Origin: a virus
Taxonomy: Duplodnaviria > Heunggongvirae > Uroviricota > Caudoviricetes
Virus record (IMG/VR): IMGVR_UViG_2908572912_000005
Span: 1-25,862 of that record
Reading direction: 5' to 3' (one strand)
DNA: 25,862 nucleotides
The translations under genes and the position numbers were made by a program. Positions 9,209-24,331 of this stretch are shown here, in pieces (within the stretch, counting starts at the first letter, position 1; every line of letters starts with the position of its first letter). The notes beneath the pieces are model-generated. The model was given only the letters and a program-made list of their open reading frames with translations. It was not told the DNA's origin and did not search any database.

Positions 9209-9495
9209 AAATAACCTTCCTTTCTCCAGATTTCTTGTGTGCGAAAAACACCTTCTGCATGCATCAGGCGTAATTCTTCTTTGGTGTAATCGCTGGTTTT
9301 TACCCGCCCGTCGATTAAATCGTGGCATGAGCTACAGGCAATCGCTGCCTGCATATCGTGTGGTTTTGTCGCTGTTCCGCACGTCCCCGCCAGCCTGTAA
9401 TGCGCCAGCACAGAGGTTTCGGGATTGTGATTGCAGTAGCCAGGGATTCTGATCTGGCACATCTGGCCTTTAGCCGCTTTACGTAAATTCACCAT
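9205..9495 (-). CDS. YbcO-like (DUF1364) putative nuclease with Cys-rich metal-binding motifs
   Basis: 96 aa; ...CQIRIPGYCNHNPETSVLAHYRLAGTCGTATKPHD...IACSSCHD... resembles E. coli prophage YbcO as I recall it. Confidence 0.7.
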   Translation of the reverse strand: MVNLRKAAKGQMCQIRIPGYCNHNPETSVLAHYRLAGTCGTATKPHDMQAAIACSSCHDLIDGRVKTSDYTKEELRLMHAEGVFRTQEIWRKEGYL

Positions 9496-10093
9496 TACGC
9501 AAACTCCAGTAGTTGTGCGGCCACATTTTCAACTTCCTCCTGAGAGGAGAATTTACGGAACAGAATCCAGTTCCACAGCACATTCAGAACAGATTTATAA
9601 ACCTGCTGAAACTCGGTTTCGTCCATATTCGCAAACGCGATGGATTTCGCCCTGCGCCCACGGCTACCGTCCGGATAAATATGCTCGGTGTAAAATCCGG
9701 CCTGAATGGTTACCCACTCGCGGAAAGCCTCAAACGACTTTAGCAATGCCGTATCCCGAGTTCTGCGTGTCGCAACTGTATTTAGATATTGCTCTGCGGC
9801 ATCACTCAGGGCTGGTGTGTGTTCCCGACCAACTGATTCGCACAAGTAATCCACGAAACCAGACAGCAGTTCTCGTTCGCGAGGTGTGATCGCCCCACCG
9901 ACCGGAGTCCAGTAATCGAATCCCAGTTGCAGGAGTTTGAAAAACGCTTGTGGAATGCGTAGTTACGCACACGCTTAAAGTCTGCGTGTATCCACTCACC
10001 TATTTTGATTTGATGCAGAAAATCGCAACTCTCCGGCGTCGCCGGGAGAAGTAAACCAGAAGAGGTTTGTTTGACCAGTTGTATATGCGCCAT
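9495..10093 (-). pseudogene. Nin-region phage gene split into two overlapping reading frames by a frameshift at an A5/T5 homopolymer
   Basis: The frame from the ATG at 10093 (MAHIQLVKQTSS...HKRF) stops at 9806; a second frame is open from ~9962 to 9495 (...FFKLLQLGFDYWTPVGG...LLEFA). Both read through the AAAAA run at 9939-9943; one nt of indel there would give a single ~200-aa protein. Confidence 0.5.
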
Positions 10094-10368
10094 TTCTCAA
10101 TCTCTCGATGGCGCAGTGCAGCAGATGCCAGTTGTTCAGGCTGACGTATAAAGTATAAATAAACTGGTTCCAGTGTAAAGCCCCCACATTGATGGAATAA
10201 AAATCAAACAATAGATTGCTGGGATAAAAATACAACGCTTATTATTAAAAGCGGTTAGACAAATTAAATTTTAATGTTATGCAAATCTGCCAGATTAGCA
10301 TAATATCTCATTTGAAAACCGCTGAAATAACAATCTTATCAGGATTAATCATATTAAGGTGAGTAAAT

Positions 10369-10455
10369 ATGGAAAACAACAAATCTGCACATTACGCTCC
10401 TTTTTTATCTATAATACTTTTTGTATTTTGTTGTGTATGGGCGGTATTTTTATAA
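10369..10455 (+). CDS. Candidate small hydrophobic peptide (28 aa)
   Basis: ATG at 10369 preceded by AAGGTGAG Shine-Dalgarno; product MENNKSAHYAPFLSIILFVFCCVWAVFL has one predicted TM segment; ends 15 nt before a strong terminator hairpin. Confidence 0.35.
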   Translation: MENNKSAHYAPFLSIILFVFCCVWAVFL

Positions 10456-10470
10456 AACACACCCACAAAT

Positions 10471-10500
10471 AAATCAAACCCGCTACAGCGGGTTTGATTT
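10471..10500. terminator. Bidirectional intrinsic terminator (13-bp perfect stem, 4-nt loop)
   Basis: AAATCAAACCCGC-TACA-GCGGGTTTGATTT; GC-rich stem core with U-rich distal arm on either strand; lies between the convergent S8 peptidase gene and the small peptide ORF. Confidence 0.6.
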
Positions 10501-10509
10501 ATATAGTTG

Positions 10510-12774
10510 TTATACGGAAACTGGCACACGAGCAGGCAATGGATAGTGAGCCCAGTTATTAGCATTTAAAGCTCTTACGCCATCAGCATAAACTTGTGTG
10601 TTTCCATCTAATGATTTTAAAGTTACTACAATAGTTACAGGTAAAGGCTCCATTAAGGCCGGTTCATTCGCTCTCAACGTTGTTTTAGCCTGAAGAGCCC
10701 AGTTACCCGAAGTAATTCCTTTATTAAATGCCTTGCGATGAATTTTTACTGGTGACCACTTTCCACCATGCTCAATTTGAGCTCTCTCATATCCAGATTG
10801 ACCGTTTTCTCCTTCCATAGGCACTTTTCCTTTTATAGTATTATTCTCAATTAAGCCAAAACTTAGCTCTACGTTCGCGCGAACATATTCACTGCCGGCA
10901 TTAGGGTTCAGTGGTGGTGCATATGCAGCAGTAATTACAATCTCACCTTTAAATTTTCCATTTTGAATAAGTGCCGATGGTATGGGATAGTTTTCCTTTC
11001 TCCACCTCATCCCAGGAACCAAGAATGTTTGGAAAATCAGAGTAAACCTATCATCACTATCATATAAGGTCTCAATAACTTCATTAGGAATTCCCGCTCC
11101 CAAATAGCGTCTTTCACTTGGCGAGTAATCAGGAGAAGATAATTGAGCGGAATGAATTAATAATGCTTTAATCAATGATGGTGAAACATTAAAGTCTGAA
11201 TTAGTGGCTATTCTCTGCCATGTATGCGCAGCTAAACTTGCCACAATTGGAGCAGCAAAACTAGTACCAAAATTAGAGCAAAGCCTATTATCTGGCCCTA
11301 CGACCTTTAAACTGCTTGCTCCTACATTCCAAGGTCTATGAACCCCACCGCCAGCATGGATTATATCTGGCTTTGGAGTAAATACAGGCCCAGGGCCACG
11401 ACGAGTATATGGTGTCGGTGTTCCAATTTCACTTAAAGCATCATTAGCTTCCATATGAGAAACTGAACCAACTGTTAGTGCTCGGACTGACTCTCCAGGA
11501 GAGGAAATTAAATCAGCACCTCCAAGCGGTTCAGGATTTGGCCATGTACGTATAGGTTCATCTACATAATTACCTGCAGCAACTACAAACAAAATACCAA
11601 ATTTATCGCTGAGCCGATCTAACTCCATCGCAAAATCACTAAACGTCTGCTCATTGCATGGTCCGCCTCCCAAAGACAAATTCCAGACTTTTATATCTGG
11701 TCTTTTATTTACAGCATCTGCTAGCCTCAGAATTAAATCTGATATATAAGATCCATTTTCATCTAAGGCACAAACATCATGGATTTTAGATTTTGTATCA
11801 GGAATCCATGGATGATTGTCATTTAAAAAATGAGCGCCTGATATCAATGAAGACACCATAGTCCCATGTTCATAACTCGTATCAGGAGGAATTACGTATG
11901 TTTCCCTACTCACTACCCAAGGAGTAATTGTTGCCGCGATGGGGCTTACCCCAGTGTCAAATACAGCAACAATGGGTAATTCTTCTGATGGTACGGGAAA
12001 GCTATTTGTTTCAATGCCAACAGAATCACTTACACTAACCGGGAATGCTGAATATTTTGGTTCTGGAATTAACGTTCTTATACCCGGGTAATCAATGAGA
12101 ATGTCTAATATATATCTATCATTTGGGGATAAATCCATTATCCTTAATAAGGGAAGACCACATTTTTGTCTAATCTCATCATATTTAACTCCGTGTTGTT
12201 CTAATATAGAAATAACGTTTTCATAGTTGTTGTAAGTTGCATCTTCACCTGTGTACTCAAATAGTCGTACAAGGATGTTTGATGATTCAAACAAACCATC
12301 AGTGCCTCCTGGAACCTTCCTATTCTCATCCCAAGGTTCAATGCGCTCAATCGCGCTTAGATTAGCCAAAATCGCTTTAATATTCCGATGTAAAATGACT
12401 GACTCTAATACGTCAAAACAGCCGGCATGAGCAGCAACCAACATTTCATCTATTTTGGCATGACCGGCATTTTGCAATCCAGCCTCTTGAGCAATTTTGT
12501 TCGGCCTATGCGTTTTGGCTATTCCCTGGTCTCTTAATTTGAAAACCAAAGTACCCAAGCTTCCAGGGTACTCTGAAAGTTTGGATTCTAAATAATGTTT
12601 ACTGGTTGTTAAATTTCTTACTAGCCCTTGTCTATATTCGGCTGTTACATCAACCAATACCTTTGCCCCACCGCCAGCGTTTACTATTGCACCCAAGTCA
12701 CTACTGGAAAAAGGGATTCTTAACATTGGGTTTGTAACTTTTGCGTTACTAAACTGTGTACCCCTTCTGCTCAT
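10510..12774 (-). CDS. Subtilisin-like serine peptidase (S8 family) with large N- and C-terminal extensions
   Basis: 754 aa; catalytic triad motifs in canonical D-H-S order: VAVFDTGV (Asp), YEHGTMVSS (His), GTSFAAPIVA (Ser), plus AAGN oxyanion-region motif. No obvious signal peptide. Start overlaps the upstream ATPase gene by 26 nt. Confidence 0.9.
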   Translation of the reverse strand: MSRRGTQFSNAKVTNPMLRIPFSSSDLGAIVNAGGGAKVLVDVTAEYRQGLVRNLTTSKHYLESKLSEYPGSLGTLVFKLRDQGIAKTHRPNKIAQEAGLQNAGHAKIDEMLVAAHAGCFDVLESVILHRNIKAILANLSAIERIEPWDENRKVPGGTDGLFESSNILVRLFEYTGEDATYNNYENVISILEQHGVKYDEIRQKCGLPLLRIMDLSPNDRYILDILIDYPGIRTLIPEPKYSAFPVSVSDSVGIETNSFPVPSEELPIVAVFDTGVSPIAATITPWVVSRETYVIPPDTSYEHGTMVSSLISGAHFLNDNHPWIPDTKSKIHDVCALDENGSYISDLILRLADAVNKRPDIKVWNLSLGGGPCNEQTFSDFAMELDRLSDKFGILFVVAAGNYVDEPIRTWPNPEPLGGADLISSPGESVRALTVGSVSHMEANDALSEIGTPTPYTRRGPGPVFTPKPDIIHAGGGVHRPWNVGASSLKVVGPDNRLCSNFGTSFAAPIVASLAAHTWQRIATNSDFNVSPSLIKALLIHSAQLSSPDYSPSERRYLGAGIPNEVIETLYDSDDRFTLIFQTFLVPGMRWRKENYPIPSALIQNGKFKGEIVITAAYAPPLNPNAGSEYVRANVELSFGLIENNTIKGKVPMEGENGQSGYERAQIEHGGKWSPVKIHRKAFNKGITSGNWALQAKTTLRANEPALMEPLPVTIVVTLKSLDGNTQVYADGVRALNANNWAHYPLPARVPVSV

Positions 12775-13903
12775 ATGCTCCTGACTCCTTCAGAATGTTT
12801 GAAATTACTCTTGATGTAAGTTTGTACAAATTAGCAAGAACTCTGATAGAAAATAATTTTTTATCTTTAGAACGTAACCAACGAATTTCATCTTCGTAAG
12901 TGCTTAAATTTACACCTTCCATAAGCGATTGAGCAAGATACAAACGCCTATACAATTTATGGTGATTTATCACACTTGCACCTTCAATAACTGCATCCCT
13001 ACGTGCATCCAAGCTCACCTGTTCAATTATTGCTCCGGATAATCCTTCCGATTTTCTTGATAAATCACTTAAATCTAGATCGCTACATATCATATTCTTT
13101 AAACGATTTTTCCAAATTAACTCTCTCTGATGTATGTCAGGCAGAGGCATTGGAATTCTGAAGCTAAATCGCCTCCAGATTGCAGGATCCAGAAGTTGCT
13201 CATGGTTAGTTGAGGCAATAATTACCGTATCCTCTGATGCCGCATCCATATTCTGCAATAGTGAAATGACAACTCGCTGAAGCTCACCTATATCTCTCTC
13301 ATTACCTCTTGCTCCAGCTAAAGCATCAAATTCGTCTAAAAAAAGCACTGATGGCCTCTGCATTACATAATCGAAAACCTGTCTAAGATTTTTGCTGGTT
13401 TGTCCCAATAAACTACTAATCAAAGTATCGCAACGCACTGTAAGAAGTGGAAAATCTAAGCGGGTAGCGATGTACTTAGATAACATAGTCTTACCTGTTC
13501 CTGGCTTTCCATACACGAGCATACGACTCGGCAATGCTGCATCAGCTTTAACAAACTCATCATAACGTTGAACATTAGTGATAAACTCTTCAACACGGGT
13601 ACTGATTGCTGCAGGCAGAAAAATCTCTGAACTGTCTAATTTAGGATAACTGACATCAACAGTGTTGAGTCGACTATCAATATCTACCGGTAATGAGCCC
13701 AGAGATATCCCACCTCCAGCCCTTTGAGCTCCTGCCAACGCCTGGGGAGCTCTAAGCAACCTTTCTCTTATCATTCTGGCTTGCTTGACCTCCCCTTTTT
13801 GTTCGAGCTTATCTGCCAGCAACCCAGCATAATTACTAGCCATCGAAGCATTTGCCTTTGTTGCACCTTCAATGATTTTTAACACTTCTGATAAATAATC
13901 CAT
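12749..13903 (-). CDS. AAA+ family ATPase
   Basis: 384 aa; Walker A GKPGTGKT, Walker B VLFLDEFDAL, sensor-1 region IIASTNHEQLLDPAIWRRF; ~130-aa N-terminal extension; GGGAG ribosome-binding site. Confidence 0.9.
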   Translation of the reverse strand: MDYLSEVLKIIEGATKANASMASNYAGLLADKLEQKGEVKQARMIRERLLRAPQALAGAQRAGGGISLGSLPVDIDSRLNTVDVSYPKLDSSEIFLPAAISTRVEEFITNVQRYDEFVKADAALPSRMLVYGKPGTGKTMLSKYIATRLDFPLLTVRCDTLISSLLGQTSKNLRQVFDYVMQRPSVLFLDEFDALAGARGNERDIGELQRVVISLLQNMDAASEDTVIIASTNHEQLLDPAIWRRFSFRIPMPLPDIHQRELIWKNRLKNMICSDLDLSDLSRKSEGLSGAIIEQVSLDARRDAVIEGASVINHHKLYRRLYLAQSLMEGVNLSTYEDEIRWLRSKDKKLFSIRVLANLYKLTSRVISNILKESGAYEQKGYTV

Positions 13904-23934: not shown

Positions 23935-24129
23935 ATGAGATATGACAATGTTAAACCATGTCCATTTTGTGGTTGTCCATCAGTAACGGTGAAAGCCATT
24001 TCAGGATATTACCGAGCGAAGTGTAACGGATGCGAATCCCGAACCGGTTATGGTGGAAGTGAAAAAGAAGCACTCGAAAGATGGAATAAACGAACCACTG
24101 GAAATAATAATGGAGGTGTTCATGTATAA
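23935..24129 (+). CDS. ralR: Restriction alleviation protein / endodeoxyribonuclease toxin RalR (Lar)
   Basis: 64 aa MRYDNVKPCPFCGCPSVTVKAISGYYRAKCNGCESRTGYGG... Confidence 0.85.
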   Translation: MRYDNVKPCPFCGCPSVTVKAISGYYRAKCNGCESRTGYGGSEKEALERWNKRTTGNNNGGVHV

Positions 24130-24331
24130 AATTACCGCCACTATTGAAAAGGAAGGTGGCACTCCTACTAACTGGACAAGATATTCAAAATCTAAACTAA
24201 CGAAATCAGAATGCGAAAAAATGCTCTCAGGTAAAAAAGAAGCAGGCGTTTCCAGAGAGCAGAAAGTAAAACTGATAAATTTTAATTGCGAGAAACTTCA
24301 GTCCTCGAGAATTGCATTGTATTCAAATTAA
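24122..24331 (+). CDS. ydaC: YdaC-like protein (69 aa)
   Basis: ATG at 24122 (MYKITATIEKEGGTPTNWTRYSK...); overlaps the ralR 3' end. Confidence 0.7.
   Translation: MYKITATIEKEGGTPTNWTRYSKSKLTKSECEKMLSGKKEAGVSREQKVKLINFNCEKLQSSRIALYSN

Follow-up and report, generated by a model that had tools for sequence, protein, structure and literature searches.

A conserved 28-codon gene for a predicted membrane peptide, overlooked by annotation, in Rac-type lambdoid prophages of Escherichia coli

The DNA considered here is IMG/VR record IMGVR_UViG_2908572912_000005, a stretch of 25,862 nucleotides (nt) that is referred to, at its full length, as the window. It is a complete Rac-type lambdoid prophage of Escherichia coli in which the minus strand carries the early, nin and lysis genes. 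A whole-window Rfam search at gathering score returned the RalA small RNA (225 bits), the antitoxin of the RalR DNase toxin, and the element was therefore identified as a Rac prophage. In the identical locus of strain M18, the Prokaryotic Genome Annotation Pipeline (PGAP) gives the minus-strand order ydaV, DUF1627, DUF977, iteA, iteS, an unannotated gap of 416 nt, DUF1367, DUF1364, DUF1133 (Q-like), lysis genes and trkG. The element of interest is a plus-strand open reading frame (ORF) of 28 codons that lies in this gap, between iteS and the DUF1367 gene.

A first inspection made from the letters alone (the sequence-only reading) had drawn attention to this ORF, to its Shine-Dalgarno (SD) sequence and to its convergence with an S8 peptidase gene. 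The ORF and the SD are as described there, and the convergent gene is iteS, which encodes a peptidase of 754 amino acids (aa). All 6 nt of the SD core, AGGTGA, are complementary to the 16S 3′ end. Across 194 copies the SD reads TAAGGTGAG in 91, TAAAGTGAG in 55, TAAGGTGGT in 39 and TAAAGCGAG in five, the second and the last of these being weaker versions. The short polar N-terminus and single hydrophobic helix of the encoded peptide are likewise borne out: residues 1–9 are polar (grand average of hydropathy −1.8, with K5 and H8), while residues 10–28 form a 19-residue hydrophobic segment that runs to the C-terminus (2.6) and carries a conserved Pro, one or two Cys and a Trp. Residues M1, N3, N4, H8, P11, L13, S14, I16, F18, C21, W24, F27 and L28 are invariant across copies. 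The peptide probably inserts in the inner membrane; it is predicted to be single-pass, with the N-terminus inside according to the positive-inside rule and about nine polar residues in the cytoplasm.

Selection on the frame was examined in three kinds of sample. The first consisted of IMG/VR copies picked by an in-ORF pattern together with loci derived from BLAST, and its 134 copies comprised 17 haplotypes of the ORF, each 28 codons long. When 67 unique blocks were placed on a neighbour-joining tree, 40 ORF changes were inferred, of which 15 were synonymous, 25 non-synonymous (mostly V/I/L/A/F exchanges) and none disruptive. Random relocation of these 40 changes would be expected to yield 3.85 disruptive events, and the probability of observing none is 0.014. 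There were no insertions or deletions in the ORF and many in the surrounding non-coding sequence. The second sample was picked only by the upstream non-coding block, and is hence unbiased with respect to the ORF. All 66 of the evaluable metagenome loci selected in this manner possessed an intact 28-codon frame, as did all ten further loci that the in-ORF pattern had missed in a scan of viral contigs. Two of these ten showed a synonymous TTT-to-TTC change within the otherwise fixed CCTTTTTTA stretch. Altogether, the frame was intact in 194/194 loci, or about 204 copies when the ten later viral loci are added.

The third sample was a more distant lineage, represented by loci L201 and L203. Its peptide reads MGNNKSAHYAPFLSIILFVCCF[VI]WALFL, and the L201 ORF differs from that of the window at 14 nt, ten of which are synonymous third-position differences and four non-synonymous (pS 0.59, pN 0.06, where pS and pN are the proportions of synonymous and non-synonymous sites that differ; Fisher p = 7e-6). 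The leader of this lineage, from the control block to the SD, cannot be aligned with that of the window, and the conservation is therefore specific to the peptide. Among the three main lineages, all comparisons gave pN/pS ratios of 0.10–0.29. In addition, recombination joints between lineages fall 1–2 nt past the stop codon, including the point where homology with the F467 lineage ends, as expected of phage mosaic joints at gene borders. Judged by these comparisons, protein-level purifying selection on the frame is demonstrated, and the ORF is very probably a real translated gene. Conservation of the frame in related prophages, a check named in the sequence-only reading, has thus been decisively passed.

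It could be argued that the sequence is untranslated, with the conservation reflecting promoter, terminator or antisense-RNA DNA of the phage backbone and the frame being incidental in AT-rich DNA. The ORF does change at 0.46 per column, a rate close to the one seen in the non-coding control block; within E. coli, third-position changes in the first sample are in weak, non-significant excess (9/12/19 by codon position; P(syn ≥ 15) = 0.10); and no gene caller or database holds the peptide. Against this stand the 10 of 14 synonymous differences from the distant copy, next to a leader that is unalignable, the lack of any frame disruption in 200 or more copies, and the joints at the stop codon. 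Moreover, the ORF persists without phage flanks in L203 and in another locus, L101, and its absence from databases is explained by a length of 87 nt. A non-coding explanation is accordingly held to be very improbable.

Two other kinds of frame at the locus were set aside. A GTG-initiated ORF that overlaps the gene (10359-10472) is not conserved, and in the F467 lineage its frame ends after six codons. Minus-strand ORFs across the locus are not conserved either. Antisense to the gene (10354-10402), an AAGGAG is followed after 4 nt by ATG and a 12-codon mini-ORF, MCRFVVFHIYSP (10392-10354). In the F467 lineage the corresponding version has nine codons of different sequence; this mini-ORF is treated as incidental because its length and sequence change between lineages, and it is probably a by-product of the Ala-Pro-Phe-Leu codons of the plus strand.

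The gene is common in E. coli. Matches to the 417-nt intergenic stretch occur in 1,366 of 5,426 complete E. coli genomes, while the 223 nt from control block through ORF, counted at a coverage of 80% or more, are found in 1,171 of 5,426 (21.6%), usually once per genome. The module that contains it is also present in four induced E. coli phages. Among the matches listed, there was no annotated feature over the ORF; only iteS was reported, which the longer query overlaps by one base. An exact look-up of eight peptide variants in a collection of about 15 billion proteins found none of them, and searches of the literature for the peptide and DNA strings found no paper, the one describing hokW-sokW being silent on the ORF. 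In K-12 MG1655, the module is absent from DLP12, from Rac and from the examined part of Qin; the entire segment separating ydaW from rzpR has been lost from K-12 Rac, and this locus with it. In O157:H7 prophages, the match to the query region is limited to its first 49 nt, beside DUF1367. A scan of genome contigs with strict peptide patterns, which a variant beginning MGNNK would escape, returned only E. ruysiae and Shigella flexneri. One carrier, L002 (NZ_CM135829.1, 4.83 Mb), is labelled DH5alpha; its lambdoid prophage contains the module along with hok and tRNA genes. The label may be wrong, or the strain may have gained a prophage.

Gene callers usually apply a minimum length of 90 nt, and the peptide is missing from databases because its 87-nt gene falls below this limit. 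The gene was probably overlooked owing to this length together with its absence from K-12, and the proposal that a genuine gene had been missed by annotation stands. Thus, although E. coli is the best-annotated bacterium, about 22% of its complete genomes, along with inducible phages, carry this missed gene.

Three variants of the peptide were compared with Pfam, NCBIfam, PHROGs, PADLOC and the sequences of the PDB, and no meaningful match was obtained. For instance, nothing in NCBIfam or Pfam scored better than E = 0.08, those matches being unrelated, and the known toxin families Hok/Gef, Ibs, Ldr, ShoB, TisB and DinQ went unmatched. The sole match in PHROGs, to the signal region of a spanin, reflected hydrophobicity and was at chance level (E = 0.009–0.24), and the anti-phage defence profiles of PADLOC gave no match. 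The peptide represents a new small-protein family, and the known type to which it belongs is that of small prophage membrane peptides, possibly toxins. The features of the locus are collected in Table 1.

Table 1. Positions in the window of the peptide gene, the module that contains it and neighbouring features.
Feature	Position	Strand	Remarks
28-codon gene	10369..10455	+	ATG to TAA, 87 nt; encodes MENNKSAHYAPFLSIILFVFCCVWAVFL
Shine-Dalgarno AAGGTGAG	10356..10363	+	AGGTGA core, 6-nt spacer to ATG
Near-invariant control block CGCTTATTATTAAAAGCGGTTAGACAAATTAAATTTTAATGTTATGCA	10236..10283		about 48 nt, AT-rich; always linked to the ORF
Leader hairpin, ATGTTATG (10274-10281) with CATAATAT (10299-10306)	10274..10306	+	RNAalifold
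Candidate peptide-mRNA promoter TTGCTG-18-TATTAT	10216..10245	+	position-weight scan; start near 10252
Two 22-nt direct repeats	10188-10209 and 10215-10236		spaced 27 nt; between divergent promoter-like sites
Outward sigma-70-like site TTTACA-16-TATACT	10152..10179	-	consensus and position-weight scans; aimed at DUF1367/DUF1364/Q-like genes
Mobile module	10143..10457		about 315 bp, AT-rich; outward promoter, repeats, control block, leader and ORF; bounded by alignment joints
Perfect 16-bp hairpin	10469..10502		arms 10469-10484 and 10487-10502, 100% complementary; U-rich flanks on both strands
iteS (IteS, S8 peptidase)	10510-12774	-	stop codon 10510-10512
iteA (IteA, ATPase)	12749-13903	-	
DUF1367 gene	9495-10093	-	599 nt in total
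RalA	24128-24306	-	

The region upstream of the gene contains several conserved elements. Foremost among these is the control block, which shows 0.43 changes per column (leader, 1.18; flanks, about 2.1) and is more conserved than synonymous sites. Within it lie a 5-bp hairpin (CGCTT/AAGCG) and the 5′ arm of the leader hairpin. From its most distant copy, in L203, it differs at four positions, two of which constitute a compensatory pair (CACTT/AAGTG). Each copy of the block in metagenomes and viral contigs is followed by the ORF. Inspection of the block by eye found no CII-type, LexA, sigma-54, sigma-28, sigma-E or sigma-32 motif. A putative ArcA-like GTTA spacing and a putative boxA-like CGCTTTTAATAA were also noted.

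To the left of the block, the paired direct repeats look like operator sites for a putative regulator. Both change in parallel in the F467 lineage, and L101 keeps only the second. The outward promoter-like site has hexamers that are fixed across lineages and a spacer that varies. It falls within the segment that is missing from an O157 prophage and is part of the mobile module, not of the phage backbone. In a lysogen, one would not expect a Q-like antiterminator to be fed by a constitutive promoter. The sequence-only reading had suggested that the 275 bp upstream of the gene, which it took to have no other coding assignment, might host a promoter or an antisense RNA. Conserved regulatory sequence is indeed present there; part of the region is the outward promoter-like site for DUF1367 and nin genes, and an antisense RNA was not shown.

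Two further resemblances in the region were discounted. The best plus-strand consensus promoter match, TGCACA-18-TATAAT (10/12, 10386-10415), lies inside the ORF and is probably incidental because its −10 becomes TGTAAT in most other lineages. Terminal inverted repeats like those of a miniature inverted-repeat transposable element (10145-10163 with 10498-10516, 74% complementary) were rejected as probably due to chance, since the right arm is in iteS-specific sequence.

The leader RNA appears to be structured. Its 8-bp helix is paired in 17/17 diverse sequences by RNAalifold and pair counting, a test that favours the hairpin in that the structure was derived from the same 17 sequences. Changes in the helix are of the G-U to G-C, U-A to U-G and G-C to G-U kinds, which are compatible only with the plus strand. 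There is also an inner pairing of ATC with GAT (10285-10287 with 10293-10295), and two inner pairs are changed on both sides. The hairpin is predicted in single-sequence folds of three lineages as well. Its conservation as a plus-strand structure implies that the plus transcript starts upstream of 10274, and the hairpin argues against a TAnnAT element at 10301-10306 serving as a −10. The best remaining start candidate, TTGCTG-18-TATTAT, would give a leader of about 117 nt. The CGCTT at 10236-10240 is able to pair either locally with AAGCG or at long range with the AGGTG of the SD core; the latter, anti-SD pairing has 98.8% of cells paired, a figure whose relevance hinges on a putative upstream start.

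The gene and its upstream region behave as a mobile unit, located at the junction of the replication/cargo region with the nin region in Rac-like lambdoid prophages. An O157:H7 prophage that encodes an identical DUF1367 protein (WP_000940319.1) is homologous to the window up to 10142, lacks everything from 10143 onward and joins straight from the DUF1367 side to a remnant of a hok terminator. Presence and absence of the module between otherwise identical phage backbones show that it moves as a unit. Its GC content is also distinct, at 0.29–0.31 between 10200 and 10500 as compared with roughly 0.47–0.53 in the flanking phage genes. Smaller portions of it occur elsewhere. For example, L101 keeps only the part from the second repeat rightward, while L203 keeps only the control block, SD and ORF, at a chromosomal site next to eda-purT-ptrB-exoX-yebY-like genes; the ptrB of this enterobacterium and that of E. 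coli are 86% identical. It follows that block and ORF form a single unit, which can be separated from the phage flanks. In L203 (8700-8963, minus strand) and L201, this unit lies in a non-prophage chromosomal island by yebY-like and copCD-like genes.

Neighbours were counted in 184–187 copies. To the right of the ORF, a convergent hok is found in 59%, a co-directional DUF1971 gene in 22%, a convergent iteS in 11% and other genes in 8%. To the left, DUF1367 accounts for 65% and a 92-aa protein plus DUF968 for 33%. The right-hand side is a variable cargo slot that may hold IteAS, Hok, a Sll1717-type ATPase, AbiH, or an ATP-dependent nuclease plus methyltransferase.

A perfect 13-bp-stem hairpin had been reported 15 nt after the stop codon, and this is confirmed, the 13 bp being the core of a longer stem. 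The description of it as a terminator dedicated to the peptide gene does not hold. The hairpin ends 7 nt from the iteS stop codon, and since it has U-rich sequence on both sides it can serve both genes; by sequence, it is best described as a bidirectional terminator common to the ORF and iteS. Its homologue in related loci is the terminator of the hok mRNA, from which it appears to derive. In hok-type loci the hairpin has no T-run in the plus direction; it is degenerate in many copies and absent in the F467 lineage, and for this reason is not regarded as a conserved part of the peptide gene.

These arrangements bear on the possibility that the ORF is a regulatory upstream ORF or leader peptide, in which the act of translation controls the plus strand downstream or interferes with convergent hok or iteS transcription. 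The locus has a weak, terminator-driven likeness to attenuators in Rfam (Phe_leader, 28 bits against a threshold of 55), the co-directional DUF1971 gene of 22% of loci lies about 450 nt downstream, and with no T-run at the hok-type hairpin, transcripts could run antisense into hok. On the other hand, the Rfam scores are far under threshold, most loci have no co-directional downstream gene, and hydrophobic replacements are conservative in an amino acid sequence under purifying selection (pN/pS 0.1–0.3). Because selection acts on the amino acid sequence, this explanation is scarcely credible, as is the non-coding one discussed above.

The explanation preferred here, with a probability of about 0.4, is that the locus is a self-contained module comprising a translated gene for a membrane-inserted, type-I-toxin-like peptide under RNA-level control. 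Transcription of a plus-strand mRNA would begin at a promoter that lies within the invariant block or immediately upstream of it and that points against the early and late transcription of the phage; because of this opposite direction, expression would be independent of the lytic cascade and would probably take place in the lysogen. The mRNA would have a leader of roughly 95–117 nt, and its product would enter the inner membrane as a single C-terminal helix. Acting at the RNA level, the conserved leader and control block would hold down synthesis of the peptide, with an antisense RNA possibly adding to the restraint. That the peptide is toxic or membrane-perturbing under such control is a tentative proposal by analogy. 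It is favoured because of the ShoB-like architecture, the long conserved leader, the constrained non-coding block and the prophage location beside hok. The AT-rich, foreign composition and the presence of RalR/RalA in the same prophage also suggest a layout of this kind.

The comparison with known type I toxins is instructive. ShoB of the E. coli ShoB/OhsC system is a 26-aa toxin ending in ...LILLFL, and the 28-aa peptide is within the size range of type I toxin ORFs (<60 aa with a predicted transmembrane helix). As in ShoB/OhsC and Hok/Sok, the peptide is very small and hydrophobic, its N-terminus is polar, and its helix extends to the C-terminal end. The locus shares with such systems a compact, autonomous, AT-rich organization, a long conserved leader with RNA structure, stronger conservation outside the coding region than within it, and a prophage or accessory location that is routinely unannotated. 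It differs from them in having no sequence similarity to toxin families and no demonstrable antisense or divergent complementary small RNA; it occurs as one copy per prophage, and toxicity of the peptide is a prediction only. RalR/RalA, in the same prophage, is a precedent for an RNA-controlled toxin carried by Rac, but RalR is a soluble 64-aa DNase, not a membrane peptide, and is unrelated in sequence and position. The type I toxin layout claimed by the sequence-only reading therefore holds as a resemblance in size and architecture, while no antisense RNA could be shown and no toxin family was matched.

Several results weigh against the toxin-like explanation. Promoter scans, folding and a repeat search demonstrated no antisense RNA at the locus. 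Minus-strand promoter-like sites do occur (TTTCCA-16-TATGAT at 10375-10348, and a TATGCT/TATGAT −10 ending about 71 nt before the ATG), but they are weak and not conserved in every lineage; the second scores 7.7–9.2 in four lineages and is missing from L203. When candidate minus-strand RNAs were folded, they did not surpass shuffled sequences (z +0.7 to −1.9 for 70-nt versions), the minus-strand terminator-like hairpin (10253-10236) has only 5 bp, and no trans-complementary repeat was found at the locus. A minus-strand small RNA over the invariant block was accordingly not supported, the folding and promoter evidence being insufficient. On the plus strand, a consensus scan upstream of the ORF gave no site of at least 9/12 and thus no strong promoter, and the −35 of the candidate TTGCTG-18-TATTAT is not conserved in the F467 and L203 lineages. 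Occlusion of the SD and AUG is only partial, with predicted partners that differ between lineages. A permissive-E-value Rfam search of 9400-11200 returned nothing at the locus save sub-threshold, terminator-driven matches, and similarity to Hok, Ibs, Ldr, ShoB, TisB or the Pfam, NCBIfam, PHROG and PADLOC models was, as noted, not found. Finally, the invariant H8, P11, S14, C21 and W24 would equally fit a specific protein partner. Because no antisense RNA was established, a type I role is left at plausible.

The last of these points leads to an alternative in which the product is a non-toxic accessory (lysogenic-conversion) membrane peptide that binds one particular inner-membrane protein, belonging either to the host or to incoming phages, and modulates it, for example in superinfection exclusion or in the tuning of a transporter or sensor. 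MgrB, AcrZ and HK97 gp15 are small proteins that modulate inner-membrane proteins in this way. The orientation opposite to the lytic genes, the co-directional DUF1971 accessory gene in 22% of loci, the moron-like presence/absence and foreign composition, the position at the edge of a variable anti-phage cargo slot, the sequence-specific residues that are invariant across lineages, and an SD that is strong in most copies are all consistent with such a role. However, the conserved block and leader hairpin suggest control tighter than a benign peptide requires, no partner was found, and profile and PDB searches showed no homology to known exclusion or regulatory small proteins. Such an accessory role, the main rival to the toxin-like explanation, is considered somewhat unlikely.

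Two groups of known elements are relevant to this alternative. Phage morons are accessory genes that lambdoid phages transcribe independently; HK97 gp15, lambda bor and lom are examples. Like morons, the gene lies between conserved backbone genes, is present or absent among close relatives (as seen for phages sharing WP_000940319.1), has a GC content below that of its flanks, and is oriented against lytic transcription with a terminator downstream in the window. Unlike morons, it is far smaller, its promoter is a candidate only, its terminator is borrowed from the convergent gene and often missing, and its module also includes the outward promoter-like site into nin genes. The small inner-membrane proteins MgrB, AcrZ, MgtS, PmrR and CydX belong to the core genome and have short leaders and, usually, a polar C-terminal tail. 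The peptide resembles them as a single-helix product of <50 aa with sequence-specific conserved residues; unlike them, it is encoded by a prophage, its chain ends within the membrane helix, and its conserved leader is long.

A further, distinctly unlikely proposal is that the module is a two-way control element of the prophage, in which overlapping signals on both strands of the block coordinate the plus-strand peptide with the outward nin/Q promoter. The block would then serve as promoter and mRNA 5′ end of the peptide gene on one strand and as an antisense RNA or terminator on the other, with the repeats taking part. If true, the module would be the founding member of a new type I toxin-antitoxin family that gates late genes or guards the defence slot, and action of the block on both strands would bear on late-gene silencing in Rac-like prophages. 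Under the toxin-like explanation, or if the peptide is an exclusion factor, a widespread prophage function would be added. In any case, the gene is a candidate for small-protein and toxin-antitoxin work, being conserved and tractable, with a strongly conserved control region, and lying beside a hot spot of anti-phage gene exchange.

A number of minor observations concern the surroundings of the gene. PGAP assigns iteA and iteS (10510-13903, minus strand) to a two-gene anti-phage system, IteAS, which fills the slot that related prophages use for hok or other defence genes. The DUF1367 gene of the window is split into overlapping ORFs (9495-9854 and 9806-10093), while the intact gene of strain M18 and others has 600 nt; the apparent 1-nt frameshift indicates a pseudogene or a sequencing error. 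An ORF at 24050-24331 (plus strand) overlaps RalA. In O157:H7 strain 86-24 (L205; 2560-2620 and 2733-2798, minus strand), the place of the module is taken by a remnant of a hok terminator together with a hydrophobic ORF of 21 codons, MLFGICCTILALVYLVRCSFC, which is unannotated and possibly a degenerate hok. Lastly, IS1 and ISVsa5 insertions just left of the repeats and control block part the module from DUF1367 in L008 (1751-2447) and L014 (1282-2490), respectively, and in both cases the ORF is intact.

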